Shown here: piece after piece, positions 1 to 41,917 of the stretch | Layout: every line of letters begins with the position of its first letter | How positions within the stretch are numbered: the first letter of the stretch is position 1 | Origin: Squalus acanthias | Lineage: Eukaryota | Length of the DNA stretch: 64,000 bases | Direction of reading: 5' to 3' | NCBI GenBank assembly: GCA_030390025.1 | Contig: CM059428.1 | Span: 155,558,001-155,622,000, forward strand | Position numbers and translations under genes: made by a program | The notes under the pieces: model-generated | The model's database searches: none | The model's input: only the letters and a program-made list of their open reading frames with translations | What the model was told of the DNA's origin: nothing

Positions 1-372
1 AGGTTACTACCCAGCAACTCTGAACAGTCAAAATTAAAATCTGGAATCCTGGTATTATGTTGCTTAAGATTGTAATTAGTTGCTGAATGCAGGCTTAATG
101 AGGAATATAGGTTTATTGTAAATCAGAAAACACCTCCATTGCAAAACCTGATGGCATAAAGTGGAAATTTGATATGGTGTTATTAATTTTGGAATAAGTT
201 AACCAGGCTGTGCTGTAAAGATTTGACTGGCAGTAGCACATGAATTTTTAACAGCCTCAAAGGTGCTATTTTTGGTACGTGGGTGTTGGCTAGCCTGTGC
301 TCCAGTTGGAAGTTTGTTTCAGAGCACTCTGAGCTTTAGTAGCGTGCAGGTTTGTTGCAGTAACTGCGAAGC

Positions 373-3300
373 ATGGGTTGCTGCTTCAGTAAAGAGAAAA
401 GTCCTTTGCTGGCCAACAATGTCACCGAAAAAACAAGTTTGTTAAGGAATGTAAGAAGTGAAACAGATATTGAAAACTGGATCCAGAACCCAGGGTCAAT
501 ACTTAAAGAAGTGACTGAAAATGGGGACTTGGATGAACAGGCTCACGAATATGGCAGGCTGAAGCGTGCACAAATTGTGAATGCAAGTGTGGATACTAAC
601 CAAGGATGGTTGAAGAACAGCAGGCACGTAATCTGGTTCTTGCTAACAAAGAAACCCTTCTACCATAATCAAATGTGCCTGCAGCAAGCTGAAAATCTTA
701 GAAGGAAAGTTAGTGAAGACTTCCTGACAGATGATCCTTCATCGTCAAATGTACAAACAAGGAGTCTGTGGGAGACGAGTGGTCTATCGAGGAAAAAAAT
801 CTTGGCTGTCAAAGGAAAGGAAGATCTGAAAAGAAAACGCCAAACATCAGGGAGTCCTGTTAAAATAGATGAAAAATCTGTTCGGAGGCAGAGAACTGAA
901 AATGTTATTGAAGGTGCACCGTTTGTATTAGACCGTAATCATCCAGAGGACAAGATTGTGCTCTCGCACCCCGAGGAAGAGGCTTCCTTAAATGGCGAAA
1001 ATTTGACAAGCTGCCAGATGACTTTTGAGAATTCCCACTCGCAACAGCAAGAACTGAAATGTCACTCACTCGTGGCAGAGGTTTATGCTAAAAATAACAA
1101 GACTGATGGAGTTCAATGTATTACAACACTGCATAATATACAAGAACATTTCTTGGATACCAGTAACGTGTCTGCTGAAATTTATATTAAATCTCGAACC
1201 AATGATTTTTATAGTATCTGTACAATAGATCTGGAGGATGTAGAAAATGATGACGGGGCACCTGTTTTCCCTCATCAAATTGCTTCAGATCTTTACTGTT
1301 CAGCTGTTGCAGCTGATAGAAAGCAAAGCCTAACATGGTCTGTTGATACTGCTGTGGATTTTTCAAGACACTGTCCTTTAAGTAGAGCAGCTGTGTCTGA
1401 GCAGCAGGAAGTAGTTCGAGTAGCACAAGCGATGACAGTAGAAGTAGACATTGTGAAGCAGCATGGTTTTTCCACTGAAGTATACCCTGATGAGGCACAA
1501 GCTGCTACATTACTGCTGCCAGAATCAAATGCAGCACTTTTATCTGCAGAAATGACCAAAGATGAGGCAGAAAGTCTTGATATTCATCCTAAATGTGGAA
1601 AGAGACACAGCCTTGTAAAGTCTTCACTTTCTGAGAACTTGACTGAGGTAAATGACTTCATTAGTTCAGACACTTGTGCTTCAAAATATGCAAATATTTA
1701 CAACCATGCCAAATGCTGCCATCTGTGTGAGGCAAAGCAGATAGAGACAGAGTCCCCCGCAAAACATAGCACTAATTTTGAAGTTACAGGAATTAATGAA
1801 TATCAACAATGCAAGCTCAATATGTTGGAATCCAAAAGTATGATGTATCCAAACACAGCTGTACAGCAGCTTGATGGGGTAAGAAATGGCAAAAATATTA
1901 TCTCCGACTCCTCTGTAACCAGGCAAGCAGTGCTGCCAAAGTTAAATCATTTATGGACTGTTAATTCTTCAACAGAAAAAATACCTAATTTTAACTCTAA
2001 ATCAATGTCAGACTGTTGTCTTGAAGGTGAGCTCATTCTTAGCCATTTAGTCAGTGCGCCATCTAATTTGCTGGAAACAGAGTTTACCAATCAGAAGAGT
2101 GAGACTGATGAACTGCAACAAGATCAAGCTACTAAGTTAAGTAATGTAAATGTGTTTGTGGAACCTCTGGAAGATAAATACTTGGATGTAAATTTGTTAA
2201 AGTCCTTATCCATACCTTCTGTTGGAAAACCATTTGAGCATATGAAAGCTGAAGGGAATAGTTTGAAATCCAGTTCTTGTGCCAAGTTAGATGATGTAGC
2301 TTATATCAGTAATTCTACCATTGAGGAGCAGATACTTAATCCAAGAAGCAGAGGTGACCAAAGTGGTAAACTTTCATCAGAGTGCATTGATGACATTTTG
2401 CAAGCTGACCTCAAATTGAGGGTGCCCTATGCCTCTGAAGAAACTATATTGGAAAATTCAAGACTTCACCTTTCAGCTGAACACGACGCAGTTGTTGAAG
2501 TGTATGATGATACATGTATGTGTGAGCCATTTAACATTGGCTGCAGTGCCAGTGTTGCTTTAACAGAGTTGGATGAAATCAGAAGTATTTTGCCTACTAA
2601 CGATGATAGCTGGGATTCTGTTCAGAAAGGACCAGCTGCAGAAACAAATATGAAAAACCAACAGGAAAAAGGTGAGACAAGGTATAGTGAACAAAACCAA
2701 GATTCTACTGATTTTTTAGCAGTCAATACTGAAATAAGCAGTGAAATGGATTTTGCCACCCATAATTTCTCTGATACTGTAGTAAACAGTGCAGACATCT
2801 GCCTAAAACAATATACCAACAGTCTGAAAGCTGATAAAGAAGAAAGTTTATTGAATGGAATAACTGAACAGATCCTTCCGATTCAAAATAATCTTTCTAC
2901 ACATAGGCAAATTTCATCTGCTCCAAATGCAGCACTTGGAGGTTCAGAGACACTGCAAAATATCCATCCACAGATCGAGAACAGAACTAGCTTTGTAAAT
3001 GGGCATCTCTCAGAATGTTGTAATGAAAAGACTGATGAAGACTTGAAACAAACATTTGATGCTGACTGGATTACAAATGAGTGCTACAATCCCATTTTGT
3101 GCTTGGTGCAAAATGAAGTTCCGCAAGTCGTGTTCGACACAAGCTGTAAAACCATACAGTTATTGGATAAGTCTGTGAAGAGTCCACCCACCTTTGAAAT
3201 TGAAACAAAGGAGGGGAAGTGTTCACAAGCTAATGCCCCAGCACTGGAAAAGAGTGTTCCTTTTACTAGTGCTTCAACAGGTGCGGAGGCTGTTAAATTG

Positions 3301-3843
3301 TACACATCAACAGAATCATGTGAAATGACTGTGAACAGTCTTGTAGATCCGAGTCAGATAGATCGATATGCATCAACTCCTTCATATGAAATACCTCATG
3401 TCATAGCTGGAATCTTCAGCAATGGTGATGATAAAGAGAAATGCTCATCTGATGTGCTGTGCAGAAGCAATGAGAGATGTGTGGATGTGATGGCAGTCAT
3501 TTTGAGAGAGTCTGGAGATGAACCTAAAGTAGATCACAATTTAGAACGTGACGTCTGGCCACCATGGACGATCAATCCAGAAATTGACGCAATGTTTGAA
3601 GATGTAGCTGAGAATATATTTTCTGAACAGCTGAAGATAAATGTAGACAGCCGTATGGGTTACTTATGGAACACCAACTTCTCTGGAATTATCAAAGAGA
3701 TCGGACCACAACAAAATGATGTAGTCCAATCAGTTGTATCAAAGAATGTTGCCCCCAAAAGCCTTATTGGGATGTATCCATACCACCTTTCTGTGTCCGA
3801 AACCATTGATTCTTGGAGTTGGCTCAACTACTGTGACCAGACT
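373..3843 (+). CDS. LARP4B: Giant putative alternative first coding exon of LARP4B (1157 codons): N-terminal MGCCFSK acylation motif, then a long acidic/Ser-rich, probably disordered region
   Basis: Stop-free ORF 373-3873. Strong Kozak context (aagcATGG) with an in-frame TAA at 361-363. Donor ACT|GTGAGT after 3843 is phase 0 (3471 nt), matching the phase-0 acceptor at 9317. The join to LARP4B is inferred, not observed. Confidence 0.72.
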
Positions 3844-5629
3844 GTGAGTATCTTTCAAATGACACCGATTTAATCCCACCTTTTGGCTCTGTTAAAATTG
3901 TAACTTTTGTACATGTCAGCAAATTTGCCATTTTTTAAATTTTTGGAATCACGTATGGGCCAGATGAGGCAGCTTTCATGGCTATTTTTCTGGTGCCTGC
4001 CCCTGATTGATTTATTTAATTCAAAAGTGGGATTTGAATTTGTGACCTCTGGGTTGGTAGTCCATACCATAACCACTCTGCGCTCATACCCTACAAATTA
4101 AACTTAGCAGTTTATGTTCAGAAGCAATGAGGATGGTATTTTGTCTTCCATCTTAAACACTGTCTAAAACTTCATTGTCATTTCCTTTCAATGAAACAAC
4201 AATCCAACATTCTCATTAAAATTCTTCAACTTTGATACTTTTTAGGCGTGAACAGCATTTATTTATGAAAGAACATTTAAATTTTGGACTTTTTCTTTAA
4301 TTGAAATGATCTACTTTGTATACAGTGGCATTTTAAATTTAAGTATTTCCTGTGCATAAAGAACTATAAAAAATTGTTTGAGTGCACACTCAAAAGCCAA
4401 CTAGTGTTTTCTGTTTACAGATACTGACTGACCTGTGTATTTCCATGTTTTCTGTTTCAGAATTCAAGCATTTACAGTTTCCTTTTTTGTATTTTAATAT
4501 TTTTTAAATCAGCTAGGAGCTATTTTGTTTTCTATATTCCTCCTTCAGTCTCAAAGCGCAGTCAACCTTTTGGAAAAACCTTGTTTATTAGATTTTTGTT
4601 TCTAAACTTCTCATGAATTAGAGTTGAGACTTCATCACTGCAATTTTATTTGCTTTCTCAGACTTGGATTTCACCACCAGTTTGTACTGAGTCTATTGAT
4701 GTTGGTTAGTGAAGCATTGAATTGCTGAACTTGGCCTTCATGTCCAGGGACTAGGGAAGGCAAAGAAAATCGTCCAAGATTTCCACTTGCAACAATGGAG
4801 TCATAGCTCATATTGGCACCTTCTGCTCCAACTCATTAAATTGAATCCTCAAAGTTGTTCTTGCCATTTTGTGCAGTTCCAGCATACTTATACATAATTG
4901 CATTGATTCTTGAACCCTCAATCTAAATTTGTACCGGTTTTGGTCCTCAGCTTCACATTATCCTTCATCTGTTCCTTTTAGAAACCTTGGTTGCAAGCTG
5001 GAGGATTTTCTTCATTTTCCTGCCCAACCTCATTTTCTGACCTCGTTTCTTCTGCTTGTTTGCCAATTTTTAACAGTTTCAGATTCTCTGGCCCCAATAA
5101 TTATCTCGTCACCTTGGGTGCCTGTTTTGGGTGGGTCTCGATATTTGTTGGAGTATGGTGATGCTGCTCACAGATGCAAGTAGCTTGAGTGTTTTGCCAA
5201 TATCTCATTATACCATGTCGTGTAACAATAGGGTTTGTTGTGATCTACCTGGATATAATGTATTTTGCATGTGCACTTCTCCAATCTCTTTGAAGGTAGA
5301 TTGAGAAGCACTTGGTGAGCTGAGGCCAGATACGAATCATTAAGCTACTTTATTTCACAGACAGCAAGGGAACAAACTGCAGACGCCTGTTTAAAACCTG
5401 TCTAACCATGCTTCCTTTTCTCTGTTCTTAGCCAGCGGAAGGGCTGACGCTGATGTCCCCATTAATGATTTGGCTACCCCTCTCTCTTTCTCTTCCAACG
5501 GTGTTGTTTTAAGATATATGCGGATTCTAGCTTTGCTTGTCTTTTCATAGCAGTCTCGCTTGTGGCATAATCTGAGTAACTGGAGCGCCATCAAATACAT
5601 AGAAGGCAGTTCAAAAAATATTCCCTGCA

Positions 5630-9316: not shown

Positions 9317-9452
9317 GAGTCGGCCAAGGTTTCAGAGCTGAATCCTAATGCCAAAGTATGGGCAAATCACGTGCTAAATCTGGATGCTGCTGCGAGCAAT
9401 GCCTGTGAACCTTGGGAAGAACAATTGGGGGCTCCTGATACTTGCCCAGAAG
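9317..9452 (+). CDS. LARP4B: LARP4B exon with the PAM2w motif (ESAKVSELNPNAKVWANHVL...CPEG)
   Basis: tag|GAG acceptor, G|gtatgg donor, phase 0 to 1. SELNPNAKVW matches the LARP4-family variant PAM2 (SELNPNAEVW in human LARP4B). Confidence 0.95.
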
Positions 9453-11434: not shown

Positions 11435-11557
11435 AAAATCTCAAGCATTTGGTGGGGGGGGGGGGGGAGAATGAAGAGAATCGTAAAAAATGAAATTCTT
11501 ACTCTTGTAATTTGACGTAACTTACTGTAAAAATTAATACTGCTTTGTGGTTGACAG

Positions 11558-11722
11558 GGTTTGAGACCAATGGTGATGCTGGCAAGCCATTTCAAAGTCC
11601 ATCACAGGAGTCCTCTCTGACAGTTCCTTCCTCTGAGCAACCAGATCTGGATGCTGTAACACTCCAGTGCTCTGATTCTTTCTATTCAGAGTATGAGACA
11701 ATGCACGGAACCAGACAGACAG
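11558..11722 (+). CDS. LARP4B: LARP4B exon (GFETNGDAGKP...SEYETMHGTRQT)
   Basis: cag|GG acceptor, G|gtaaaa donor, phase 1 to 1, 165 nt. NGD and SEY motifs align with the human LARP4B N-terminal region. Confidence 0.88.
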
Positions 11723-12969
11723 GTAAAAGAAAAAGCACTGCAGTTTAATTATCAAATTGATTCTCTAGAGTTCATTTCGCAAAAGCATGCGCCATACTAC
11801 ATTGTTTGAGTTTCTCATGATTCACATGACCAGTTGGAATAACTCTACCATCTGTCTTCAATTGTGATTTTCACAATTTTAATGGGCAGTAGATTTCTAT
11901 GATTTGCTAGCACGTCTCAGTTTATGTTCACTTTGAACCAAAATGAACAGTATAAGGAATGCATGGAACACATTTGCTTCAACGGCCTCCTTGGTAACTT
12001 ATTCCATATGTCAATTATTTGCACAATATAGTTATGCTTAAATTTCTTTTTTATTTTTGCCAGGTTACAGTCTAAATTGACGTTTTGAAAAGAGAACTTT
12101 TTTGGTCCTGGCAATAGTATGATGTAATTGTGTCTGTGCCTGGATGTGTTGGTGCATTTCAGCTGTTGTACATTTTTTGGAATTATTTGCACAACTTCTT
12201 TTCCTTCAACTCTTTGGTACTTCACTTCAGGGCCCAGTGTGATCCTATATTAACCTGAGATAATTGATTCTAATGTCAATGGGCACTATTCTAATATAGC
12301 TTAAATATGTTCTCGTAATTTTAGGGCTTCGAGCATTTTGGTTGAATATTTCAGTCCTAGATCACTATCTAAAATGTGAACTGCAAGTCTGTGGCGGTTT
12401 TCATCTTGATGTATAATGTTATATGATACATAAGAACATATGTGAAAGGTTAATCCACAGCAATCTGTTTGTGTTCATTTTGTTTTCCCTAAATTGACAG
12501 AATTCAACATCAATGTGCAGACAGTAGTCTGGGATATCATGCACTGTTCTAGTGAGTTAGTACTAGCCATTATATTTAATAATTTCACCATATATTTAAA
12601 TGCTAGTTATCTTCACTGCAGACTTTGTTCCCTTTTTATACATTTTCTTTTGAAGGCATCTACATTTGTCAGGCTTTTGCGTTCGATGTGAGGTAAAATT
12701 CCCCATCCCCATCTTGTAACTGACAGATCTTGCATACACAAGTTGCTGTATTGGGTTTCTTCTCCTGGTAGGATTTAAATTTGTAAATTAACTTTGTGAA
12801 ATCGGCTGCTACACTCATGTAATTTACCTGTCTGCCACCGATGAAAGCCTAACGATGAAAGACACTGCTGTGCAATCTGGGTGAAAGAGATTAAGTTGCA
12901 CTGTATTAGATCAGTAATGTACAAGTGCATTTTTCCTGGAGAAACTATTGTTTTTCTCTTGGTTTGTAG

Positions 12970-13063
12970 GAGGAGGAGATCAGTCTCTATTGGAACAGCA
13001 GACAGTTGGTCAAGAAGACCTTAGAGAGTTGCTGAAAAAGACACTGGAGTTCTGTTTGTCTCG
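12970..13063 (+). CDS. LARP4B: LARP4B exon, start of La motif (QEDLRELLKKTLEFCLSR)
   Basis: tag|GA acceptor, CG|gtgagt donor, phase 1 to 2. LKKTLEFCLSR is identical to LARP4B. Confidence 0.96.
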
Positions 13064-13127
13064 GTGAGTCCTTAGTTGTAGTTTTTCTCATTTTATACAT
13101 GTAAAGATTAATTTTATTTCATTTCAA

Positions 13128-13440
13128 CACGGTGGCATAGTGGTTAGCACTGTTGCCTCACAGCGCCAGGGACCCGGGTTCGAATCCGGCCTCGGGTGAC
13201 TGTCTGTGTGGAGTTTGCACATTCTCCCCGTGTCTGCGTGGGTTTCCTCCGGGTGCTCCGGTTTCCTCCCACAGTCCAAAAATGTGCGGGTTTGGTTGAT
13301 TTGGCTGTGATAAAATTGACCCTTAGTGTTAGGGAGGGATTAAATACGTGGGGTTACGGGGATAGGGTGGGATATGTGTCGGTGCAGGCTCGATGGGCCG
13401 AAATGGCCTCTATCTGCACTGTGGGGATTCTGTGATTCTA
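13128..13440 (+). mobile_element. tRNA-derived V-SINE (HE1-like) with CR1-derived tail
   Basis: A box TGGCATAGTGG, B box GGTTCGAATCC, V-domain GTGTGGAGTTTGCACATTCTCCCCGTGTCTGCGTGGGTTTCCTCCGGGTGCTCCGGTTTCCTCCCAC, and tail GGGCCGAAATGGCC...GATTCT. Confidence 0.9.
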
Positions 13441-13944
13441 TTGCAGATTTAAGTGCTTAACAATGTAGTTTAACCATTTGGACTTGATGTTTAATGCTGT
13501 AGACAATATACACTCTTTATAAAGTTTTTTGACCGAAATAGTTTTCTTATCAAATTGAAAATGAATATAAGAATCTCTTCTCCCTCCTCCCGGCTTCCAA
13601 AAACAGAACATGCTTTCAGTATCTCAAAAGTACTGCACAAATTCTGCCGACAAAATTTTAAACAAAATAAATAAACAAATTAATGAAAAATTCCTAAACT
13701 GCAAGAAATCAACTTGGTGTTGGGTGTCTGCATACCTTAGGCATCCAACATTGATTGTGGACAAATAGAGGAGTTGGTATACCTGAACCAAATGAGCCAT
13801 CTCTAAAAACACTGCCCCATTTAAGTTTTCTCTCCTCCCTAGAAGGTGCTGTAAGCTTATAGATCTTGAAAAGCCATCAAAGAAATGAGATCCAGAAGTT
13901 GGTGCAAGTGGGGGAGGGGGTGGGGACAAAGTTCTTGTAAGATT

Positions 13945-14345
13945 CATTAGGAGCAAAGGAGGTTGAGGTGTGATTTGATAGAGGTGTACAAGATTATGGT
14001 GGGTTTGGATAGGCTAGACAGGGAAAGGCTGTTCCCACTAGTTGATGGTACAAGGTCTAGGACACAGATTTAAGGTTTTGGGCAAGAGATACAGGGGGAA
14101 TGTGAGGAAAAAAACTTTTTTACGCAGCGCGTGGTGATGACCTGGAATTCGCTGCCGACGGAAGTGGTGGAAGCGGAGACACTCAATGTTTTCAAGGGGA
14201 GACTGGATAGGCACTTGAGGGAAATAAACTTGCAGGGCTACGGGGATAGAGTGTGGGAATGGGACTGACTGGGATTGCTCTACAGAGAGCCGGCATGGGC
14301 CGAATGGCCTCCTTCTGTGCCGTTATGACTCTGACTATGATTCTA
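13945..14345 (+). mobile_element. CR1 3' fragment
   Basis: GATTTGATAGAGGTGTACAAGATTATG...TGGAATTCGCTGCC...GGGCCGAATGGCCTCCTTCTGTGCCG with an ATGACTCT-type tail. Confidence 0.85.
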
Positions 14346-14473
14346 AGATCTTCAGGAATGCAGCATGCTGGCAAACATTAGCACCACAGCCAAAACACAG
14401 GAAGCACCATGCAGAGACTGCTGGCATAAATTAACTGAAGGGTAAATAATACATTTTTAATTAATTACATAGA

Positions 14474-15430
14474 ATGGGAGAGCAGGTGATGTGTTACTGC
14501 TGCAATATGTGGGAGCTGGTGGACACCATTGATGTTCACGGTGAACACATTTGCAGTAAGTGTTGGCTGCTCGAGGAACTCCGGCTCCGTGTTGATGAGC
14601 TGGAGTCCGAGCTTCAAACACTGCGACACATCAGGGAGGGGGAGAGTTACCTGGACTCCGTGTTTCAGGAGGTAGTCACACCAATTAGAGTAACTAATTC
14701 AGAAGTAGCCCGTGGTCAGGGACAGGAAGGTGTGACTACGAGTGAGGCAGGTACAGGGATCCAGGAGGTAGTGTTGGAGGAGCCGCAGCCCTTGCTCTTG
14801 TCCAACAGGTTCGAGGCTCTTACTCCCTGTGTGGATAGGAGCGGGGACTGCAGGGAGGATGAGCAACCTGGCCACAGCACCGTGGTAAGGGGGGCCATTC
14901 AAGTGGGGGGAGTAAAAAGAAATGTTGTAGTGGTAGGGGATAGTATCATTAGGGGGATAGATAGGGTTCTTTGCAGCCAAGAGCGAGAGTCCCGAAGGCT
15001 GTGTTGCCTGCCCGGTGCCAGGGTTAAGGACATCTCCTCTGGGCTGGAGAGAAACTTGGAGTGGGAGGGGGAGGATCCAGTTGTCGTGGTCCATGTTGGT
15101 ACCAATGACATAGATAGGACAAGGAAAGCGGTTCTGCTGAGGGAGTTTGAGCAGCTAGGGGCCAAATTAAAAAGCAGAACCTCGAGGGTAATAATCTCTG
15201 GATTACTACCTGAGCCACGAGCAAATTTGGCTAGGGTAAATAAAATCAGGGAGTTGAATGCGTGGCTCAAACACTGGTGTGGGAAAAATGGGTTTTGCTT
15301 CTTGGGACACTGGCACCAGTACTGGGGCAGGAGAGAGCTGTTCCGTTGGGACGGACTTCACTTGGCCAGTGCTGGGACTAGTGTCCTGGCGAATCGAATA
15401 ACTAGGGCTGTGGAGAGGGCTTTAAACTAA
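14474..15430 (+). CDS. CR1 ORF1p: zinc finger/leucine zipper plus SGNH esterase domain
   Basis: CxxC...CxxC followed by a Leu heptad (LEELRLRVDELESEL), and esterase blocks VVVGDS, LPGA, HVGTND and DGLH. Confidence 0.92.
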   Translation: MGEQVMCYCCNMWELVDTIDVHGEHICSKCWLLEELRLRVDELESELQTLRHIREGESYLDSVFQEVVTPIRVTNSEVARGQGQEGVTTSEAGTGIQEVVLEEPQPLLLSNRFEALTPCVDRSGDCREDEQPGHSTVVRGAIQVGGVKRNVVVVGDSIIRGIDRVLCSQERESRRLCCLPGARVKDISSGLERNLEWEGEDPVVVVHVGTNDIDRTRKAVLLREFEQLGAKLKSRTSRVIISGLLPEPRANLARVNKIRELNAWLKHWCGKNGFCFLGHWHQYWGRRELFRWDGLHLASAGTSVLANRITRAVERALN

Positions 15431-15468
15431 TTAGTGGGGGGGAGGTTTCAAGAGAGCAAAAAATAAAA

Positions 15469-18421
15469 ATGACAACAGAGAGGGTCATAGACATAGGTAG
15501 CAGTAGGGGAATCACAAATCAGAGCGTGGCAGGAAGGGACAGAGTGTGTGGAGTAAAAGGTAAACTGGTAAAAAGTGAAAAAGCAGGAACTAAGTGCCAC
15601 AAAGCATATTTGAAAGTTCTCTATCTGAATGCACGTAGCATTCGTAACAAAATAGATGAGTTAATGGCACAAATAACTACATATGGTTATGATATTGTGG
15701 CCATTACAGAAACATGGCTGCAGGGTGACAATGCCTGGGAATTAAACATACCAGGTTATTTAACGATCAGGAAGGACAGGCAGGAAGGAAGGGGAGGTGG
15801 GGTGGCTATGTTAATAAAGGAAGGAATCACTGTAATACAGAGTAATGATATTGGGTCAAAAAATCATGATAATGAAACAGTTTGGGTGGAGATAAGGAAT
15901 AATAAGGGGAAAAAAAACATTAGTGGGCGTAGTCTATAGGCCTCCGAACAGTTGCAACTCTATTGGACGGAGTATCAATCAGGAAATAGTTGAGGCATGT
16001 AATAAGGGAACATCTATAATTATGGGGGATTTTAACTATCATATTAATTGGACAAATCAAATGGGGCAGGGCTGCCTTGAGGATGAGTTCATTGAGTGTA
16101 TTAGGGATGGGTTTCTTGAGCAGTATGTAACTGAACCGACCAGGGGGCAAGCAACCTTAGATCTGGTCCTGTGTAACGAGACAGGATTAATTAAAAATGT
16201 CCTAGTAAAGGATCCCCTTGGAATGAGTGACCATAACATGGTTGAATTCCATATTCAATTAGAGGGTGAGAAGGTTGGATCTCAAACAAGCGTGCTAAGC
16301 TTGAATAAAGGAGACTATGAAGGTATGCGAGCGGAATTGAGTAGAGTGGATTGGGAAAATAGATTAAAGGGTAAGACGACACATGATCAGTGGTGTACAT
16401 TCAAGGAGTTATTTTACAACTTCCAAAAAAAATATATTCCACTGAAAAGAAAAGGGTGTAAAAGAAAGGACAGTCATCCGTGGCTAAGTAAAGAAATTAA
16501 GGATAGTATTCGACTAAAAACAAGGGCATATAAGGTAGCGAAATCTAGTGGGAGGACAGAGGATTGGGAAAACTTTAAAAGGCAGCAAAAAATAACAAAA
16601 AGATTGATTAAGAAAGGGAAGATAGATTATGAAAGTAAATTAGCAAAAAATATAAAAACAGATAGTAAGAGTTTTTATAGTTATATAAAAAGAAAAAGGG
16701 TGGCTAAAGTAAATGTTGGTCCCTTAGAGGATGAGACCGGGAAATTAATGGTGGGAAATATGGAGATGGCAAAAACACTGAATGAATATTTTGTATCAGT
16801 CTTTACAGTAGAGGACACTAAGAATATCCCAACACTGGACAAACAGGGGGCTATAGGGCGAGAGGAGCTAAACACGATCAAAATCACTAAGGAAGTGGTA
16901 CTCGGTAAAATAATGGGACTCAAGGCGGATAAATCACCTGGACCTGATGGCTTACATCCTAGAGTCTTGAAGGAAGTGGCGGTAGGGATTGTAGATGCAT
17001 TGGTAATAATTTTTCAAAACTCCCTGGATTCCGCTAAGGTCCCGGCAGACTGGAAAACTGCTAATGTAACACCCTTATTTAAAAAGGGCAGTAGACAGAA
17101 GGCTGGTAACTATAGACCGGTTAGCCTAACATCTGTGGTAGGTAAAATTTTGGAGTCCATTATTAAGGAAACAGTAACAGGACATTTGGATAATCATAAT
17201 TTAATAGGACAAAGTCAGCATGGTTTTACGAAGGGGAAGTCATGTTTGACAAATTTGCTGGAGTTCTTTGAGGAAGTAACATATAGAGTGGATAAAGGGG
17301 AACCAGTGGACGTAGTGTATTTAGACTTCCAAAAGGCATTTGACAAGGTGCCACACAAAAGATTATTGCTTAAGGTAAAAAATCACGGAATTGGGGGTAA
17401 TATTCTGGCATGGATAGAGGATTGGCTATCTAACAGAAAGCAAAGAGTTGGGATAAATGGTTCATTCTCAGACTGGCAATCAGTAACTAGTGGTGTTCCA
17501 CAGGGGTCAGTGCTGGGTCCCCAACTCTTCACAATCTATATTAACGATTTGGAGGAAGGGACCAAGTGTAACATATCAAAATTTGCAGATGATACAAAGA
17601 TGGGAGGGAAAGTAGTGAGTGAGGAGGACATAAAAAACCTGCAAGTGGACATAGACAGGCTAAGTAAGTGGGCAGAGATTTGGCAGATGGAATACAACAC
17701 TGGAAAGTGTGAGGTGATGCACTTTGGCAGGAAAAATCCTAGAGCAATTTATTATCTTAATGGCAAGAAACTGGAGAGTACTGAAGTGCAAAGGGATCTG
17801 GGGGTCCTGGTGCACGAAACTCAAAAGGTTAGTATGCAGGTGCAGCAAGTGATTAAGAAGGCAAATGGAATGTTGGCTTTCATTGCTAGGGGGATAGAAT
17901 ATAAAAATAGGGAGGTATTGCTTCAGTTGTACAAGGTATTGGTGAGACCGCACCTGGAATACTGCATACAGTTTTGGTGTCCTTACTTAAGGAAAGACAT
18001 CCTTGCTCTCGAGGCAGTGCAAAAAAGGTTCACTCGGTTAATCCCGGGGATGAGGGGGTGGTCATATGAGGAGAGGTTGGGTAGATTGGGACTCTACTCA
18101 TTGGAGTTCAGAAGAATGAGAGGCGATCTTATTGAAACATATAAGATTGTGAAGGGGTTGGATCGGGTGGATGCGGGGAGGATGTTCCCGATGACGGGTG
18201 AGACGAGAACTAGGGGACATAGTCTTAGAATAAGGGGCTGCTCTTTCAAAACTGAGATGAGGAGGAACTACTTCACTCAGAGGGTGGTAGGTCCATGGAA
18301 TATGCTGCCACAAAAAGCTGTAGAAGCTACAACATTAATTAAATTTAAAACAGAAATAGACAGTTTCCTAGAAGTAAAGGGCATTAAGGGTTACGGGGAG
18401 CGGGCAGGAATTTGGACATGA
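15469..18421 (+). pseudogene. CR1 ORF2p (APE endonuclease plus reverse transcriptase), split by a +1 frameshift in an A8 run at 15910-15917
   Basis: Endonuclease motifs YLNARS, ITETW, GDFN and SDH; RT motifs YLDFQKAFDKV, GVPQGSVLGP and FADD. Removing one A fuses ORFs 15469-15939 and 15923-18421. Confidence 0.92.
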
Positions 18422-18724
18422 GTCTAGGTTCGGATCGGTCATGGCCCTGTGGGTAGTGGAGCGGGCCCAGGGACTGTGTAGCCTGATTCTGCTCCTATTT
18501 CGTGTGTGCAATTCTGTTAGATGCAGGAGATGGTTCTGTGATAGAAAGTAGATTGGCGGTTAGGATCAGATCAGCCATGATCTTATTTAATGGCGGAGCA
18601 GGCTCGAGGGGCCGATTGGCCTACTCCTGCTCCTATTTCTTATGTTCTTATGTTCTTATGTACTGAGGATCCAGCTGCTCAGTGTTCAGGTCCCATAATG
18701 CTGACCATGGGCATCAGTACATTC

Positions 18725-19880
18725 TATGGTGCAAAGCATCACAGCCAAACCCAGTCCATCTCACCGAGGATTCCCCTCTACCGTGGTCAACACGGCCCTC
18801 GACCGTGTCCGTTCCATCTCCCGCACTTCTGCCCTCACCCCGGCCCCTCCCTCCCGGAACCACGATAGAGTTCCCCTTGTCCTCACCTTTCACCCCACCA
18901 GCCTCCACATTCAACGGATCATCCTCCGCCATTTCCGCCACCTCCAACGTGATCCCACCACCAAACGTATCTTCCCCTCATCTTCCCCTCACCTCCCCTT
19001 TTAGCATTCCGTAGGGACCGCTCCCTCCGAGACACCCTAGTCCACTCCTCTATCACCCCCCAGCACCCCTTCCCCTTCACCCGGCACCTTCCCGTGCAAG
19101 CGCAGGAGATGCAACACCTGCCTTTATACATCCCCCCCCTTCCCACTCTCCAGGGCCCCAAACACCCCTTCCAGGTGAAACAGCGATTTACTTGTACTTC
19201 TTGCAATCTAGTATACTGTATTCGCTGCTCACGATGTGGTCTCCTCTACATTGGGGAGACCAAACGCAGATTGGGTGACCGCTTTGCGGAACACCTCCGT
19301 TCAGTCCGGAAGGGTGACCCCGAGCTTCCGGTCGCTTGTCATTTTAATTCACCCCTCCACGCTCACTCAGACCTCACCGTCCTCGGCCTCTTGCATTGTT
19401 CCACGGAAGCGCAGCGTAAGCTCCAGGAACAGCACCTCATCTTCCGTTTAGGCACTTTACAGCCTTCCGGACTCAATATCGAGTTCAACAATTTCAGATC
19501 ATAACCCCGGCCCCTACCACATATGTATACATTTTATCCACTCTTTTGGTCCGTGCCTTTTTCCTTTTTTTCTCTCTCTCCCCCCACGGCAGCTGTCTCT
19601 GATTTCTGCCAGCATTTCACACCTTACCTTTTGTTTCTCAACCTGTCCCATTACCATCTCGTCTTGCCTTGAGCATCTCTCAATGTCTCTACTCACTAAA
19701 GACCATCCCTTTTGTTCTTTTATTCCTCCCCCCAGCCTCCCCCTTGCATTTTTATCTGTTTATTTCTTGCTCTCTCAGTTCCGACGAAGGGTTTCGACCT
19801 GAAACGTTAACTCTCTTTCTCTCTCCACGGATGTTGCCTGGCCTGCTGAGTTTTTCCCAGCGTTTTCTGTTGTTATTCCA
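18725..19880 (+). mobile_element. Penelope-like element 3' fragment: GIY-YIG endonuclease region plus terminal repeat with a mutated hammerhead core
   Basis: ORF 19094-19504 reads NLVYCIRCSRCGLLYIGETKRRLGDRFAEH...HF...E...LGTLQPSGLN. A hammerhead-like core lies at 19777-19812. Confidence 0.88.
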
Positions 19881-20301
19881 GTCCATCTCTCGCCTGAATT
19901 CTACATGCACATGATCCATCAGGGGTCACTGGACAGTGGTTAGAAATGTTTGCTTATGTTCTTTATCCTCCTAAGGACACTGAGGCTAACCGTGCCTCAA
20001 TTTCTATCTTGGTTCAGTTGAGCTAACCAGGAATTGATCCTGCAAACTTCTGGTCTGTATGGCTGAATACTATATAAAGTTGTAACTTTAACTATCATCC
20101 AGGCAGTGGAACTGTGTTTCTCCTCTAATTTGAAAAGTCAATCTGTTGGCTTATTGGAACATATTAAGTAGGCATTTACACACTCAAAACTTGAACAAAT
20201 CCTTAAAATGTGAATACTTCATTAACATTGAGCTTGGAAATGGGTGCAAATCTAATTAAAATTCTAGTTGTTCACATTGAAGGTAATTTTTGTTTTTGCA
20301 G

Positions 20302-20438
20302 AGAAAATCTGGCCACTGATATGTACCTGGTCTCCCAAATGGATAGTGACCAGTATGTGCCAATACTGACTGTAGCAAACCTTGACCATGTGAAGAAACT
20401 GAGCACAGATGTGGACCTGATTATTGAAGTTCTGAGAT
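20302..20438 (+). CDS. LARP4B: LARP4B exon, La motif ([20 protein letters not shown]...IIEVLR)
   Basis: cag|A acceptor, T|gtaagt donor, phase 2 to 1. Near-identical to the LARP4B La motif. Confidence 0.97.
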
Positions 20439-20517
20439 GTAAGTATGTGTTGCATAAAATGTAAAACGCAGTATTTTGAAGAGAATTGTTGCTGAAAATA
20501 TCCTGTAATTCATTTAG

Positions 20518-20621
20518 CATTGCCTTTGGTCCAAGTGGATGAGAAAGGAGAGAAAGTCAGGCCAAATCAAAACCGCTGCATTGTAATTCTACGAGAAGTA
20601 CCAGAGTCGACACCCATTGAG
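20518..20621 (+). CDS. LARP4B: LARP4B exon, La motif-RRM junction ([35 protein letters not shown])
   Basis: Follows a 79-nt intron. tag|CA acceptor, GAG|gtaaga donor, phase 1 to 0. Confidence 0.97.
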
Positions 20622-21164
20622 GTAAGAATTGAGCAAAAACAGACACACTCTAATTTAAAATATTTTTCAGTTGAATTTAAAAAAAAAAAAAAAAAAATCA
20701 ACAAATGATGCATGGAAGCTTATCAAAAACTATCAAATGGGATCAGAAGTTAGTGCAAGATGGGGTACAATGACTGGCAAGCAGGTTCAGCATAGTTCTT
20801 GTAAGCGAGATCTTCAGGAACATTAGCACCATAGCCAATACACAGGAAACCGAGCTGATGCACTAGATCAAGCTCCAACTCCATCGTGCTGACCTCTTGC
20901 TACAAGGTCCGTGAGAGGAATCCAGATCACTGCTAAATGTATGCAATTACTGGAGTACGAATGTACATGAGGATTTTTAAAGAAATAAATTGCATCTGGG
21001 CAAATTTGTCATGTTGGGGATGGAGAGAATAAATGGTGCCTTCAGGCTGGTGAATATTCCTTAACATTTTAGTCAAAGTGGAAAGAGGCAATTCCACTTG
21101 TTATGGGATAAATACAGTGATCGATTAGCTTGTTCCAGACATTCAAGTAATGCAGTAGGTAACC

Positions 21165-21977
21165 CCAGTAGACTTTTAGAAGTTACTATTGAATCTGCTT
21201 CCACCGCCCTTTCAGGCAGCGTGTTCCAGATCACCACAACTCGCTACGTTAAAAACAATTCCTCAAGAACATACGAATTAGCAGTAGTAGGCCAAATAGC
21301 CCCTCAGGCCTGCTCTGCCATTCAATAAGATCACTGCTCATCTTCCACCTCAACTCCACTTTCCTGCCCGATCCCTTGATTCCCCTAGAGTTCAAAAATG
21401 CAACTTGCTTTCAGCTCCTCCGCCGGTTTCTGTTGCCAGTTATCTTAAATCTGTGTCCTCTGGTTACCTCCTGCCACTGGAAACAGTTTCGCCTTATTTA
21501 CTCTTATCAAAACCCCTCCTGATTTTGAACACCTCTATCAAATACTACTCTTACCCTTCTCTGCTCTAAGGAGAACAACCCCAGCTTCTCCACTCTCCAC
21601 GTAACTGAAGTCCCTCATCCCTGGGACCGTTCTGGTAAATCTCCTCTGCACCCTCTCCTCTATGCAGGGGGGATGTTTCCCCTGGCTGGGGAGTCTAGAA
21701 CCAGGGGGCACAGTCTCAGGATAAGGGGTTGACCGTTTAGGACTGAGATGAGGAGGAATTTCTTCACTCAGAGGGTGGTGAATCTTAAGAATTCTCTACC
21801 CCAGAGGGCTGTGGAGGATCAGTCGTTGAGTATATTCAAGACAGAGTGATAGATTTTTGGATATCAAGGGATATGAGGATAGTGCAGGAAAGTGGAGATG
21901 AGGTAGATCATCAGCCATGATCTTATTGAATGGCAGAGCAGGCTCAAATGGCCTACTCCTGCTCCTATTTCTTATGT
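21165..21977. mobile_element. Cluster of CR1 fragments (- ~21165-21660 with a nested 3' end at ~21265-21400; + ~21661-21977)
   Basis: TAAATCTCCTCTGCACCCTCTCC on the - strand; GGACTGAGATGAGGAGGAATTTCTTCACTCAGAGGG...CTCCTATTTCTTATGT on the + strand. Confidence 0.8.
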
Positions 21978-22615
21978 GATAACATGTTGTTGGTCTAATT
22001 TGAACAAAACTCTTGTAGCTAATCTATAGAGTAAAATTCTTGTGTGGGAGATTGAGGTTGCTCACTTTTTAGGTTAGACAGTTTTTTCTTAATTTGAAAG
22101 GTACACTTCCCTTTCTTGCCAGGTAACAGTATTAGGTTAGTCGCTATAGTAATCTTAAACCACAGAACAGTCCCTTAGATCAGCCTCAAAGAATTGGGAC
22201 TTTCGGTCCAAAATTGTTTTGGAACTAGACCCAAAAGGATAACCGTACAAAAAAAAAATACCGGTGGTTTTGCTTGTTATAACTACTGCTGTGAAAACCT
22301 GTCAACACTCGTATGTTGTGGAATACTCCACTCATGAACCATGTAAAATGCTTGACTGTTGAGGCAGTTAGTGCTCCAGGACACCGGAGCAACATAAATT
22401 ATAGAGTAGGAAATCCGTGCCAGGGCAGTGATTGTGTGGGGTAGTGCTTAGTGAAGGCTGTGTATGTGCTTCTCGAGTGGTTGGGATTAAAGGGAGTTAT
22501 ATATTTTAAGAGCAATTGCACAGGAACTGTCTTCTACTTGGATGACATTATTAGGTAGAACCTGCCTGCATGGAATATGTATTTGGCATAATCATCAAGC
22601 TTATTTTCTTTCCAG

Positions 22616-22726
22616 GAGGTAGAAGCACTCTTCAAAGGAGAAAATTTCCCGAAGTTCATGAGTTGTGAGTTTGCCTACAATGACAACTGGTTTATCACCT
22701 TTGAATCAGAGGCTGATGCACAACAG
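22616..22726 (+). CDS. LARP4B: LARP4B exon, RRM ([37 protein letters not shown])
   Basis: cag|GAG acceptor, CAG|gtaaag donor, 111 nt, phase 0 to 0. Confidence 0.97.
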
Positions 22727-22863
22727 GTAAAGCCGATTATTCTTACCAAGATTTTGGAAATTGAGACAATGTATACAGGAAATCTTTAGCAATTTAAATA
22801 CTTTGTGCTTCAATCAGTTGTACTTCTGCACAAGCTTTCAGTACAGCACTAAGTTCTGTTGAG

Positions 22864-23310
22864 TGTCATCTGTGGCTCAGTGGGTAGCACTCTCGCCTCT
22901 GAGTCAGAAGGGTTGTGGATTCAAGTCCCACTCCAGAGACTTGAGCACAAATCTAGGCTGACACTCCATGCAGTACTGAGGGAGTGCTGCACTGTCGGAG
23001 ATGCTGTCTTTCAGATGAGATGTTAAACTGACCCTGTCCACCCCCTCAGGTGATCGTAAAAGATCCAATGGCACTATTTCGAAGAGGAGCAGGGGAGTTA
23101 TCCCCGGTGTCCTAGCCAATATTTATCCCTCAATCAACATCACTAAACAGATTATCTGGTCATTATCACATTGCTGTTTGTGGGAGCTTGCTGTGCGCAA
23201 ATTGGCTGCTGCATTTCCTACAGTGACTACACTTCAAAAGCACTTAATTGGCTGTTAAGCGCTTTGGGATTTCTGGTCATGAAAGGTGCTATATAATTGC
23301 AAGTCTCTTT
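22864..23310 (+). mobile_element. Deu-SINE (SacSINE1-like), full length
   Basis: tRNA head (TGGCTCAGTGG...TTCAAGTCC), Deu-domain GATGAGATGTTAAAC...AAAGATCC...CCCCGGTGTCCT, and L2-like tail GCTATATAA. Confidence 0.85.
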
Positions 23311-23444
23311 GTTAGTTGTCTTATAAGATTCTTTTAAACTGGGTGGTGCACTGGGTCAGACACAGCCTTTTGCTTCTGGGACTAGGGTCCAGATTGATGA
23401 CATGAAAGTCACCTGTGTTTGTAAGGATTGTATGTAGAATACAT

Positions 23445-24450
23445 TGTGGTTGAAGGTCAATCATCACAGCCCCAGGACATCGCTGCAGGAGTTCCTCAGG
23501 GCAGTGTCCTAGGCCCAACCATCTTCAGCTGCTTCATCAATGACCTTCCCTCCAACATAAGGTCAGAAATGGGATGTTCGCTGAAGACTGCACAATGTCA
23601 TTCACAACTCCTCCGATAATGAAGCAGGCCATGCCCACATGCAATAAGACCTAGACAACGTTCAGGCTTGGGCTGATAAGTGGCAGGTAACATTCGGCAG
23701 GCAATGTCTATCTCCAACAAGCGAGATTCTAACCACCGCCCCTTGACATTCAACGGCATTACCATCACCGAATCCCCCACCATCAACATCCTGGGGGTCA
23801 CCATTGACCAGAAGCTTAACTGGACCAGCCACATAAATACTGTGGCAACAAGAGCAGGTCAGAGGCTAGGTATTCTGTGTCGAATGTCTCACCTCCTGAC
23901 TCCCCAAAGCCTTTCCACCATCTACAAGGCACAAGGAGTGTGATGGAATACTCTCCACTTGCCTGGATGAGTGCAGCTCCAGCAACACACAAGAAGCTCG
24001 ACACCATCCAGGACAAAGCAGCCCGCTTGATTGGCACCCCATCCACCACCTTAAACATTCACTCCCTCCACCACCGGTGTACCGTGGCTGCAGTGTGTAC
24101 CATCTACAAGATGCACTGCAGCAACTCGCCAAGGCTTCTTCGGCAGCACCTCCCAAACCCGCGACCTCTTCCACCTAGAAGGACATGGGCAGCAGGCGTG
24201 CGGGAACACCACCACCTCCAAGTTCCCCTCCAAGTCACACATCATCCTGACTTAGAAGTATATCGCTGATCCTTCATCGTCGCTGGGTCAAAATCCTGGA
24301 ACTCCCTCCCTAACAGCACTGTGGGAGTACCTTCACCACACGGATTGCAGCAGTTCAAGAAGGCAGCTCACCACCACCTTAAGGGCAATTAGGGATGGGC
24401 AATAAATGTTGACCTTGCCAGCGACACCCACATCCCATAAACAAATTTTT
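23445..24450 (+). mobile_element. 5'-truncated, frameshifted LINE (CR1/L2 group) covering the RT C-terminus and 3' end
   Basis: GVPQGSVLGPTIFSCFINDL, ILGVTIDQKLNWTSHI, MEYSPLAW, and tail GGGCAATTAGGGATGGGCAATAAATG...CCCACATCCC. Confidence 0.85.
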
Positions 24451-25656
24451 AAAATATATATTTGGGTGGTTTTTATTCAGTTGGGTATGAGTCTGCAGCA
24501 CAAAACTACTGCTAATTTAGAGAAGCCCCAGAATGGCTGATGCAAAAAAATTGGAAGGGGGTAATACTACACTGGTGCAGTAGAGGGCACACTTGGGGCT
24601 GAGGCACGGAGACAGAATGAAGGACACTTTGCTCTGCCTCTAACTACTGTGCCTGACCTGGGGAGTGCTTGATGTTGACACTGGGTGCTTGAAATGGAAA
24701 GTCTTCAATTTCATGGGATTAATGCCCTTAACGTTAAGCACAAAAAGAAATTTACAGAAGAATTAAATGTCCCACTTTGTCCTAAAAGCTGTAGCAATAA
24801 TTGTAAAGCCTTTTGTAAATTAAAATGTGCATTAACAATTCTTGGAACTGTTCAACTTTAATAAACTACCTGCAAATGTGATAATAGTTGGTCTTCCCTT
24901 TCCATCTCCACCATTTATAAGGGGTTTTCCAGGAATTAACTTCTTGGTTTAATTTTCTGAAGTTTCAATTTTGAATATTTATATTCAAATAGTATGTATA
25001 ATGTGGGATCGGTGGAGACCTGGTATGGGTTTATTGAATCGCCATGTAGAAACTGAGTTGATGCCCGAGGAGACATGATCATTGGAGTATCCTAGTTGAA
25101 TGACTGTTTTCAGTAGAGTACGCTGAGCTTGTTTCTCTTGTGAATGTATCTTGTTAACTCCGAGCCAGTTTTCTCCTTTAGTTAAAAGTTCTGCTTAATT
25201 TTTTTTCTTGAAGTAACAAGACTTTTTTAAATATGGCAAAACTTTTAAAGGAAATTTTTTTTTTGATGTACACTCTCAAATCTGGGTTGAATGTATTTGA
25301 AGGGCAGTGGTTCTGCATACAGCCCTTATCTGCTGAACAGGAATTGAACACTTAATAGCAGTGCTCTCAGCAGAGAAAGTGTTTTCCTGTGCACAAAAAA
25401 CTGCTTCCATTAAGAGTGGTTTATATCTTGAATTGTTTGTGACTGTAATGCTAACTTTGCAATTCTAATCATCAATCTGCTGACTTCAAACTTACTAATT
25501 GAAGTGGAGTAGCATTCCTGCGACCACACCAGAGCTGGCATTTTAACTGAAGACTAATGTGCATTTCTGTAGTTTATTGATCATGCACCACATGTGTAGT
25601 GTTATAACATGCGTGACCAGTTTATTGTGTTCTAACTTGTCACTTACATTGGTCAG

Positions 25657-25710
25657 GCTTACAGATATCTTCGAGAAGAAGTAAAAACCTTCCAGGGAAA
25701 GCCTATAAAG
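25657..25710 (+). CDS. LARP4B: LARP4B exon, RRM (AYRYLREEVKTFQGKPIK)
   Basis: cag|GCT acceptor, AAG|gtaaaa donor, 54 nt, phase 0 to 0. Confidence 0.96.
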
Positions 25711-25809
25711 GTAAAAGTTGGATACTATTTAACACTGATTTAGTTCCTTGATTCTTCTGTTCAGTACAGTGTCAAGTATTAACTTGAACATGAAACTTTT
25801 TTTTTGCAG

Positions 25810-26019
25810 GCAAGGATAAAAGCAAAGCCAATGGCTATCAATACTTTTCTACCAAAGAATGGTTATAGACCTCTTGATATGAACCTATACACTCAACAAC
25901 AGAGGTACACATCATTTTATGTGCCTCCGATATACAGCCCCCAACAGCAGTTTCCACTTTATAGCCTTCTTACTCCTCAGTCTTGGTCTACAACCCATAG
26001 CTACCTGGATCCTACATTG
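25810..26019 (+). CDS. LARP4B: LARP4B exon (ARIKAKPMAINTFLPKNGYRP...HSYLDPTL)
   Basis: cag|GCA acceptor after a T-tract, TTG|gtaagt donor, 210 nt, phase 0 to 0. Confidence 0.96.
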
Positions 26020-29000
26020 GTAAGTGTGATGCACTTGGAATTGTTTCAAACTGTTGATCATTTCTTCATTTAAAGTTGACCTAACTGTATTCATAGTATG
26101 CAAATTGTGTAATAATTTCTGACCTTTTAGAATTCTCTTGAATTTATTGTGCCTTTTTATAAATTGGGCACTTAAAAGATTTTAAACGATAACGGAATCA
26201 GTTGCAAGCTATGACCTCTGATATCTGCTTTTATAAATGTATCTCCGTGCTTCATACTCATTATTGAGACACATTAGAGAGAACTACTCGGACACTTGCA
26301 TCCTTTAAAATTTCCATAGGACGGTGGAGCATCTGGGTAATTGCATGTTTTGATTGACTTCGTCCAGGACTGATCAGTTACCCGTAGAGGGTATCCTATC
26401 GCTTTTATGACTTCAGCATTTATATTTTGAGAGAAAGTTGTTTCCTCCGCTTTGCGCCCTATTATTCACTAGCTGAAGGTTGCGGGCAGGCAGGCAACTT
26501 GCTCCCAGGTCTCTGCCAGTGCTGCTCTGTCAACAAAGATTTTTTTTTTAATGTCCTCAATTGTTTAACTCACCCATTCTATGCAGCATTTCCTCTCAGT
26601 GCGCAGATGGCCTCCATCCAAAAGTCTGGCAATTCAGCTCAGAACCAGACACTAGCAAGTACATGGGTGACTCATCCTGGGGGAGGGGCAGAAGCACATA
26701 CTGAGTCTTTCTATCAGTCGCCTGACTTGAGTGTAGGAACCCATTATGTAGGGAAGTGAATAAAACCTGCATCTCCGCACTCAATGGCAGTATATTAGTA
26801 CACAACTATATTGGGCTAAGCTCGGGATTTTGGGGTTTCTCACAACTTAAAGTGCAAATGTTCCACTTTCATCTTGCTAGTCACGAGTCAGATTTTGAGC
26901 CAAAAATGAACTAAGTATTAGGCATTAAAAAAAAATCTCTTGGAAGCTGCTGCCAGCTTTAATTTCTTCCCTTCTGTAAAGTTTGTTTCATGTTCTGGCA
27001 TCAGGTGTGAAAACATTGGGATTTGGTATGGGGGGGGGGTTTCTGAGATAGAAAGTAGCTGGGGTTTTAGCAATTTTTGGCCAGTTGTCATATTGCTATC
27101 CGGGTGGAAAAGGCCCTAGTTTCTAAATTTCTTGTAGAAACATGCATTGACACCAATGTTAACCAATCAGCTTCCTGCATAGGAGATCTAAAATAGTGTC
27201 TCTGCACTAGATGAGAATGATTTAAAACTAGGATTGCCTCCAGGTTGACTTCACTTACTAATTTGGGAAATGTATGCCTGAAATAGTCCAGCTGCAACTT
27301 TTTTTTTTATCTTCAGGCCTGCTAGAATGAGGGGCAGATACTGAATTTGCTTCGTTAATATCCACAGCTGCAGAAGTTGGCAGATGCACATCATGCTGGA
27401 TCCTAAGATATAAAAGCACAGTCAAAATGCGTTAGTTTCTGTTGTGTGGCTTGAAAGGAGACTTGACGGGTCACACTCCCGTTTTCCTAAGAAACATGGC
27501 TATGCTTATCTATATACTTGAGAACCTTATTTAGTTTTTGATGTCAAAGTCCTAGTCAACGCACGACCACAGTCAATTGACTCACCAGCAGAAATCTGGG
27601 AGTTTTGACTTGTGTTGGCAGCCATGAGTGGCCATGTGGCATCTGGCAAGTTGCTAGATGAGAGCACGTGAATATCCAGCTAAAAATAATTTAATACTGC
27701 ATTTCTATCTGCTTTATTTCAAGGTAGAACTGCAGTTGGTTTGCTGGTAGGCTATTGCTGAATACTGAACCAAGATGGATGTTGCACTGTTAATGAAAAC
27801 TACTTCAGATCGAAATATTCAGATAGCAAGAGTTTTCTTGGACATAGGTGCAAAAATTAAAGCTCCATCTTCAAGCAATGCAACTCACCTTTCTTTGTAT
27901 AACATGAAGAAAGCTAACTTAACTATTAATTAGAGGCTCTTGATTTAAAGGATCAAGGAAATTTAGAATTTTATGTATTTTACCTCTGGTTATATTTTTT
28001 GGGAGACTTAAGTTGCATAGAGTCCATGATCTAGTAGTTGTGCTGTGTTGTAGGGAGTCGGCTCAGTGAGCCTTTTGTTTTGTCTTTTGACCTCGGTCAA
28101 CCCCAGTGTGTATTCTCTACTTCAGTGATTTCAAGATATTCTTAAGTCTCAAGAATAACTGCCTGAGCTAAACTTAATGTTCCATCTAATTTTTTTTCCC
28201 TGCATCAATGTGGAAATTCTTAAGCATTCTGAATTTCGCTGCTCGTGCGCTCTGTATTCCCAGAATAACAGTTTTCACTTTTTTGGCTCTGTGTGGATAA
28301 CCTTAAGTTTTATTGACCACTAAGAGGGAGAGAGGTTTGATTCCCACTCAGTTTGCCAAGGTGCAATCCAACTAGTATACTAGTGTCTGAGTCACTATTA
28401 CTTCGCTTAACTAGTCACAGCAGACAAAATAATGTCCTGTTATTAAATTGTCTCACGTTTCATGCTCCTGAGTGGAAGGTCCAGTGTTAGTTCAACCCAT
28501 TTCTTGGAGTTGTGTATATCTGAAGATAGATCTGTTAACCCTTCTGAATGGTAGCTCCTGTCGGTGGTGGTGTGGTATTTCCTTTTCTTTGGCGCAAAGG
28601 TTTCTTAGCATTTCTTCCATTTCTCCCTAATACCAGGGATAGTTCAAAATATGCAAGGAGACGGAGCAAACGTTATACTGGTAATCGCTTGTTAGTCCTT
28701 CAAACCATGTTTCTTGCACATCACAACAATAAGTAAATGGAGGATCCTGTTGCATTCACGAGGCATCTATTCCAACTTGTGAAGTAAAATACCGCGTCCG
28801 ACTACCTAATTATTGAAGACAACAACTAGTGGATCAGGGTTTCCCATTCCTGTCTGTAGATACTTTGATCAGTTCCTGCAGGGCATCTATTTAAATTGAG
28901 TTTATAACACAAAATGGAAACTGCTTGTTCAGTGGTCTACTAGGTCAATCCTGTTCACGTGATGATCTGCATATTCTGGAACATCTCCAGCATCTGTTCA

Positions 29001-35512: not shown

Positions 35513-35594
35513 TCATGCCCAGATGTTGCATCCACTTCAGAGCAAAGTATGGCTCTTGTTGTTTTGACCATTTTACAATCTTTTATTTATCCCT

Positions 35595-41915: not shown

Positions 41916-41917
41916 TG

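Follow-up and report, generated by a model that had tools for sequence, protein, structure and literature searches.

The stretch of Squalus acanthias DNA analysed here (64,000 nucleotides, hereafter the window) contains most of the gene LARP4B, as shown by the alignment of the catshark LARP4B protein in 14 tblastn pieces between 9317 and 55341, which cover residues 28-738. The assignment to LARP4B agrees with the presence of the La module (La motif and RRM), of PAM2w, CR1 and CR2, and of a start exon of the MTSDQ type, the latter lying upstream of the window. The PAM2w exon itself finds its best match in catshark LARP4B, with 96% identity. Between the usual start exon and the PAM2w exon there is one open frame, at 373-3873 (1166 aa), whose larger part is treated below as a giant alternative exon. 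The features needed to follow the argument are these:

4.3 kb upstream of the window: usual LARP4B start exon (MTSDQDTKVV...), with the 4B-type MTSDQ and the donor CTG/GTAAGT in phase 0
351..363, + strand: tttgttgcag, which resembles an acceptor, with an in-frame TAA directly behind it (361-363), a candidate acceptor proposed from sequence only
373..3843, + strand: coding part of the giant alternative exon, an open frame of 1157 codons (3.5 kb)
373..396, + strand: MGCCFSKE, predicted anchor by N-myristoylation (Gly2, Ser6, Lys7) and S-palmitoylation (Cys3, Cys4), from conservation and consensus
394..411, + strand: EKSPLL, first acidic dileucine match, lineage-specific and possibly incidental
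427..444, + strand: EKTSLL, conserved [DE]xxxL[LI] match and predicted AP-adaptor sorting signal
1207..1239, + strand: FYSICTIDLED, arm motif (residues 279-289) recognised by conservation
3346..3822, + strand: cluster of arm motifs recognised by conservation, DxxQxDxYAxTPSYEI (992-1007), ExCVxxM, YLW, YPY and WxW
3844..3873, + strand: donor ACT/GTGAGT in phase 0, with the read-through VSIFQMTPI ending at TAA 3871-3873
9317..9452, + strand: PAM2w exon (ESAKVSELNPNAKVW), acceptor TAG/GAG in phase 0, common to the short and long isoforms
11557..55344, + strand: remaining LARP4B exons with La motif, RRM, CR1 and CR2, from tblastn, family match and motif scan
about 20288-20437, + strand: La motif, PF05383 match
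40521, + strand: CR1 (FPPLP), from motif scan
55066, + strand: CR2/RACK1 site (SYAEIC), from motif scan
55342-55344, + strand: LARP4B stop codon

Downstream of the giant exon, PAM2w, the La module, CR1 and CR2 are all intact. The intron separating the La-motif exon from the next one measures only about 80 bases (20438-20517), the other introns being of several kilobases. Another LARP4B intron harbours a near-complete and apparently young LINE (14465-18421), composed of a 321-aa frame followed by overlapping frames of 177 and 841 aa and carrying endonuclease/reverse-transcriptase-like sequence; we take this LINE to be CR1-like. Directly behind it stands a 183-aa frame (18953-19504), which presumably resembles the GIY-YIG endonuclease of Penelope-like elements.

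The original prediction held that the frame belongs to a long LARP4B isoform, and the splice phases match this proposal. The giant-exon donor (3843/3844) and the PAM2w acceptor (9317) are both in phase 0, which permits an in-frame join and gives a predicted long isoform of 1,868 aa, a length obtained by summing. The context of the MGCC Met (A at -3, G at +4) is strong. An in-frame TAA precedes it by 12 bases, and no further Met follows in the frame before residue 101. Since the TAA at 361-363 is in frame, upstream coding sequence cannot be fused before the MGCC Met via the candidate acceptor at 351..363, a site that two RNA contigs cross unspliced. At the other end of the exon, read-through after the donor meets a stop 9 codons on, and ATTAAA occurs downstream of the donor at 4097 and 4215. 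No Pfam family, the LAMTOR domain included, scored above cut-off with the 1166-aa frame. The C-terminal block of the encoded arm is single-copy in the 3.7 Gb genome, and the search with this block (4 candidates scored) revealed no paralogue with this arm in the same genome. Judging from the phases and from the relatives described below, the giant exon is real and deeply conserved, and probably serves LARP4B as a 5' coding exon in place of the usual start.

Giant-exon models fused to the PAM2w exon do occur in other species, where the arm-bearing proteins are database predictions known here at the protein level. With the PAM2w exon as query, 84 proteins were recovered. Chimaera, birds, axolotl, frogs and a skink were represented among them by long forms of 1,183-1,842 aa, and the updated chimaera LARP4B model begins MGCCFSKERGPVVPDQVDEKTSLL. 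The whole frame gave four phmmer matches against 1.84 billion representatives, one of them being coelacanth LARP4B X2 (E 1.2e-25) and the other three, from crocodile, owl and anole, being all labelled 'uncharacterized'. A profile built on the arm end recovered 112 of 6,785 candidates and added turtles, lizards and many birds. Database models with the giant exon come from chimaera, coelacanth, amphibians, lizards, turtles, crocodile and birds. The 272 proteins collected comprise 158 that bear the arm, either fused to the PAM2w exon (119) or arm-only (39). The last WxW motif lies 8-10 residues before the PAM2w junction in 107 of the 119 fused models, and 28 of the 39 arm-only predictions continue as VSI at the donor position, this being what a conserved GTGAGTAT donor would encode. 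Arm proteins derived from run assemblies were arm-only in every case seen. Bird models use splice sites internal to the giant exon, their arms measuring 641-1218 aa; in one quail model the usual start exon is spliced to such an internal acceptor, so that this long form lacks the anchor.

Neither mammals nor ray-finned fish were among the named matches of the PAM2w-exon, phmmer and arm-profile searches, but these were of low sensitivity, the profile missing even a frog protein from which it had been built. No shark or ray record above 796 aa was present among the cluster members listed (15/17 and 14/14). A single-sequence search with residues 1-70 retained none of its 30 candidates at an E threshold of 1, and a search of the ESM Atlas gave no usable match.

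Translation of positions 373-444 yields MGCCFSKEKSPLLANNVTEKTSLL, confirming the 24-residue start and both dileucine matches that had been reported there. The myristoylation consensus consists of a Met-Gly start with Ser at 6 and Lys at 7, and Cys at 3/4 are typical palmitoylation sites; the Met-Gly start, Cys3/Cys4, Ser6 and Lys7 are all found in the shark sequence and kept in orthologues. Apart from EKSPLL and EKTSLL, the 1157 residues of the exon contain no [DE]xxxL[LI] match. In a composition null of 20,000 draws, at least two such motifs in the first 30 residues arose with a frequency of 0.00095, at least one with a frequency of 0.039, and G-C-C at positions 2-4 with a frequency of 2.8e-5, all three figures being post hoc and uncorrected for genome size. 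Conservation was judged a stronger test than composition of whether these N-terminal motifs arose by chance.

An MGC start is found in 132 of the 158 arm-bearing proteins and a [DE]xxxL[LI] match within residues 11-30 in 125 of these 132, counts that are not independent in a protein set dominated by birds. All 132 starts read MGCC[FY]S (MGCCFSKE in 124, MGCCYSKE in 4, MGCCFSKD in 2, MGCCFSKG and MGCCFSDE in 1 each), the remaining 26 models beginning inside the arm or elsewhere. The conserved dileucine begins at residue 16 in 110 proteins, at 14 in 7, at 19 in 5 and at 15 in 3, and the seven exceptions correspond to six frog forms with LF or TK and to one pigeon model. An equivalent of EKSPLL (residues 8-13) was present in none of the 132 MGC-starting orthologues, chimaera having ERGPVV there. 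Only one of the two acidic dileucines originally proposed as sorting signals, EKTSLL, is therefore retained, in a low-pLDDT and predicted membrane-near segment as would suit AP-adaptor cargo, whereas EKSPLL fails on conservation. In the amphibian long forms residue 10 is also a Cys (ELCP/DLCP), the third of this N-terminus, and may be palmitoylated as well.

Because birds dominate the set, eight representatives of deep lineages (chimaera, coelacanth, axolotl, frog, skink, turtle, crocodile and owl) were scored too. Residues 1-8 were identical in 8/8 (F5 in 7/8), as were E19 and L23, with L24 in 6/8. An apparent conservation of L12 (6/8) was discarded as an alignment artefact, this residue having been aligned with L9 of other species. 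The mean identity count per exon position is 1.34 of 8 and only 47 of 1157 positions reach at least 7; no other stretch of eight residues in the exon scores as high as MGCCFSKE (7.88). The spacer from the anchor to the dileucine varies in length and sequence among orthologues, so that the expected pattern, in which MGCCxS and ExxxLL are kept while the spacer diverges, holds from chimaera to birds.

The remainder of the exon had been viewed as a long flexible arm. In the AlphaFold2 model of the 1166-aa frame (37-sequence alignment) the mean pLDDT is 36.1, with 1153 of 1166 residues under 50 and no secondary structure except one 3-residue turn. The arm is accordingly predicted to be disordered, low pLDDT on a shallow alignment being a result that fits disorder without proving it. 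Its identity averages about 17%, and its length is conserved, with a median of 1132. The flexible part of the proposal is thus in line with the model, but a spacer alone does not account for the conserved short motifs, among which FYSICTIDLED has F279, Y280, S281, C283 and D289 invariant in 37 sequences. On the evidence of these several motifs, the arm is more than a mere spacer. The FYSI of the arm presumably fits the loose LIR core. The arm motif TPSYEI (3370-3393) resembles KPSYAEI (55060-55083), the core of the RACK1-binding CR2, and is a possible second RACK1 or WD40 site.

RNA evidence in sharks was sought in 4 of 10 listed runs, taken by guess to be RNA, from two studies and as contigs only; 7 of the 10 listed runs are RNA by guess. 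The region covered extended from window position -4599 to 5400, with the PAM2w exon excluded, and repeats swamped the tables of joints and loose ends. Contig depth cannot rank gene parts in this check, intron contigs being about as deep as exon contigs. One contig spans the usual start exon and continues on both sides, as expected of the short form. Another fits the genome up to the giant-exon donor plus one base and then carries 29 non-fitting letters, a suggestive number, since a contig from a 31-letter assembly graph would be expected to extend 30 letters into a shared exon. A further contig reads 21 bases past the donor. Given such thin RNA support and the size of the listed elasmobranch records, the sampled sharks probably make little of the long form or confine it to certain tissues.

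The N-terminal arrangement agrees with the likeness to LAMTOR1 (p18/Pdro) on which the original prediction was built. According to PMC2882324, LAMTOR1 combines G2, C3 and C4 with a dileucine at 17-22 and resides on late endosomes/lysosomes. The corresponding signal occupies residues 16-21 in the majority of LARP4B long forms and 19-24 in the present sequence. The first 39 residues of LAMTOR1 suffice for lysosomal targeting of a fusion, as stated in PMC7039192. By these motifs and their conservation, the long LARP4B isoform is likely to be organelle-tethered, and a pathway of successive steps can be envisaged. The giant exon would replace the 27-residue usual start and join the PAM2w exon in frame, as suggested by the phases observed here, by the database models of other species and by the one suggestive shark contig. 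Translation would start at the MGCC Met, given its strong context, the upstream in-frame stop and the conserved start, after which NMT would add myristate to Gly2 and a DHHC enzyme palmitate to Cys3/4. AP-3, AP-1 or AP-2 could then read EKTSLL and route the protein to endolysosomes, by analogy with LAMTOR1. The predicted-disordered arm would space the RNA-binding end from the membrane, while its conserved motifs would recruit partners. At the distal end, PAM2w, the La module and CR2 would engage PABP, mRNA and ribosomal RACK1 just as they do in the short form, and the outcome would be organelle-local mRNA stabilisation, translation or transport. PMC11565960 describes LARP4B as binding RACK1 via CR2 and reports a mitochondrial location for LARP4/4B, which in the case of LARP4 depends on AKAP1; this would make organelle-local action already a trait of the LARP4/4B family.

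That the long isoform is acylated, sorted by EKTSLL and placed on late endosomes, lysosomes or a related organelle, where it would face the cytosol and hold mRNPs, is regarded as having slightly better than even chances, the frogs that weaken (LF) or lose (TK) the dileucine being counted against it. A more tentative proposal, whose chances we would put somewhat below even, is that of a self-anchoring LARP4B predating the shark/bony-vertebrate split, which would dock poly(A) mRNPs and ribosomes on endolysosomal/lysosome-related membranes with the motif-studded 1,100-residue arm as scaffold. Such a protein may be absent or rare in mammals, which would explain why it is unstudied. A role in yolky oocytes, at yolk organelles, would fit the lineages found.

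The same observations can be accommodated in other ways. The protein could be membrane-bound but depend mainly on AP-2/AP-1, cycling among the plasma membrane, recycling endosome and trans-Golgi network or serving a cell-type-specific organelle. The organelle is indeed not fixed by the signal, because the [DE]xxxL[LI] class binds several adaptors, AP-2 and AP-1 as well as AP-3, and the frogs with LF or no dileucine keep MGCC and gain their third Cys; this reading is nevertheless unlikely in view of the dileucine spacing, equal to that of LAMTOR1, and of the retention of the motif in all but seven of the MGC-starting proteins. The conserved aromatic/acidic motifs of the arm, including the presumed LIR-like FYSI, could also recruit autophagy or sorting factors, in which case the anchor would serve disposal or storage, delivering mRNPs to endolysosomes for sequestration, turnover or entry into intraluminal vesicles, or titrating PABP/RACK1 from the short form. 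We hold this to be quite unlikely, since a 1,100-residue arm of conserved length joined to an intact CR2 better fits a lasting cytosolic platform.

More radical are the readings that dispense with the RNA-binding end or with the anchor itself. If donor read-through and intronic polyadenylation were the rule, the main product would be the arm alone (about 1166 aa), a membrane scaffold encoded within the LARP4B intron and lacking the RNA-binding end, a reading compatible with the early stop, the two ATTAAA sites, the 39 arm-only predictions and the contig reading past the donor. Against this, the read-through tail is conserved solely as VSI, the donor consensus, the 119 fused models all share one boundary and one contig stops fitting at the donor, which together make the arm-only product improbable. 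There is finally a very slight chance that the exon is not translated from the MGCC Met and that the motifs arose fortuitously. Weak expression in the shark runs and the lack of a long elasmobranch record among those listed would be in keeping with it, but it has to contend with a 1157-codon open frame and with motifs conserved in all lineages found, and conservation nearly excludes it.

The preferred reading, an endolysosomal tether, concerns a protein form that is apparently old and undescribed. Within the open literature, subscription journals being outside the coverage, no paper on a long LARP4B isoform was found, and the accessible part of the LARP evolution review PMC7928011 describes a short N-terminus only. 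In databases the long isoform figures as unnamed 'X1' models or as 'uncharacterized protein'. It has yet to be settled how animal cells hold mRNA and ribosomes on endosomes and lysosomes, the known links being separate adaptors. If the endolysosomal reading is true, one alternative exon makes a well-studied cytosolic PABP-/RACK1-binding protein its own organelle tether.

Canonical LARP4B (about 738 aa, with PAM2w, La module, PBM, CR1 and CR2) is the product of the same gene and shares everything from PAM2w on, differing in that its conserved 27-residue start, assigned to 'P2+' in PMC7928011, is swapped in the long form for the 1157-residue arm with its predicted anchor. The likeness to LAMTOR1 is one of layout only, as no homology was found: membership of the LAMTOR1 family was rejected in the absence of a LAMTOR Pfam match in the 1166-aa frame and of a PDB sequence match to residues 1-30 at E up to 10. 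The LARP4B anchor is, moreover, isoform-specific and bears an RNA-binding protein 1,100 residues away. Alternative first exons give a myristoylated and an unmyristoylated form of ABL1 (1b and 1a, respectively), but examples of this type are signalling enzymes with short alternative ends, and we know of no mRNA-binding protein with isoform-specific N-acylation and an added dileucine. ANXA11 and FERRY mediate mRNP/ribosome hitchhiking on organelle surfaces. The LARP4-AKAP1 pair similarly tethers mRNPs or ribosomes at the surface of mitochondria (PMC11565960). These organelle tethers rely on separate adaptors or on lipid-headgroup binding, in contrast to the covalent lipid anchor predicted to be encoded here by an alternative exon. 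In Ustilago, Upa1 attaches to membranes via a FYVE domain. The Upa1/Rrm4/Pab1 system resembles the long form in that a membrane-attached protein offers a PAM2 to the MLLE domain of the poly(A)-binding protein (PMC9249222). Upa1, however, needs a separate RNA-binding protein, whereas the long form of LARP4B would combine the anchor, PAM2w, the La module and the RACK1 site in one chain.
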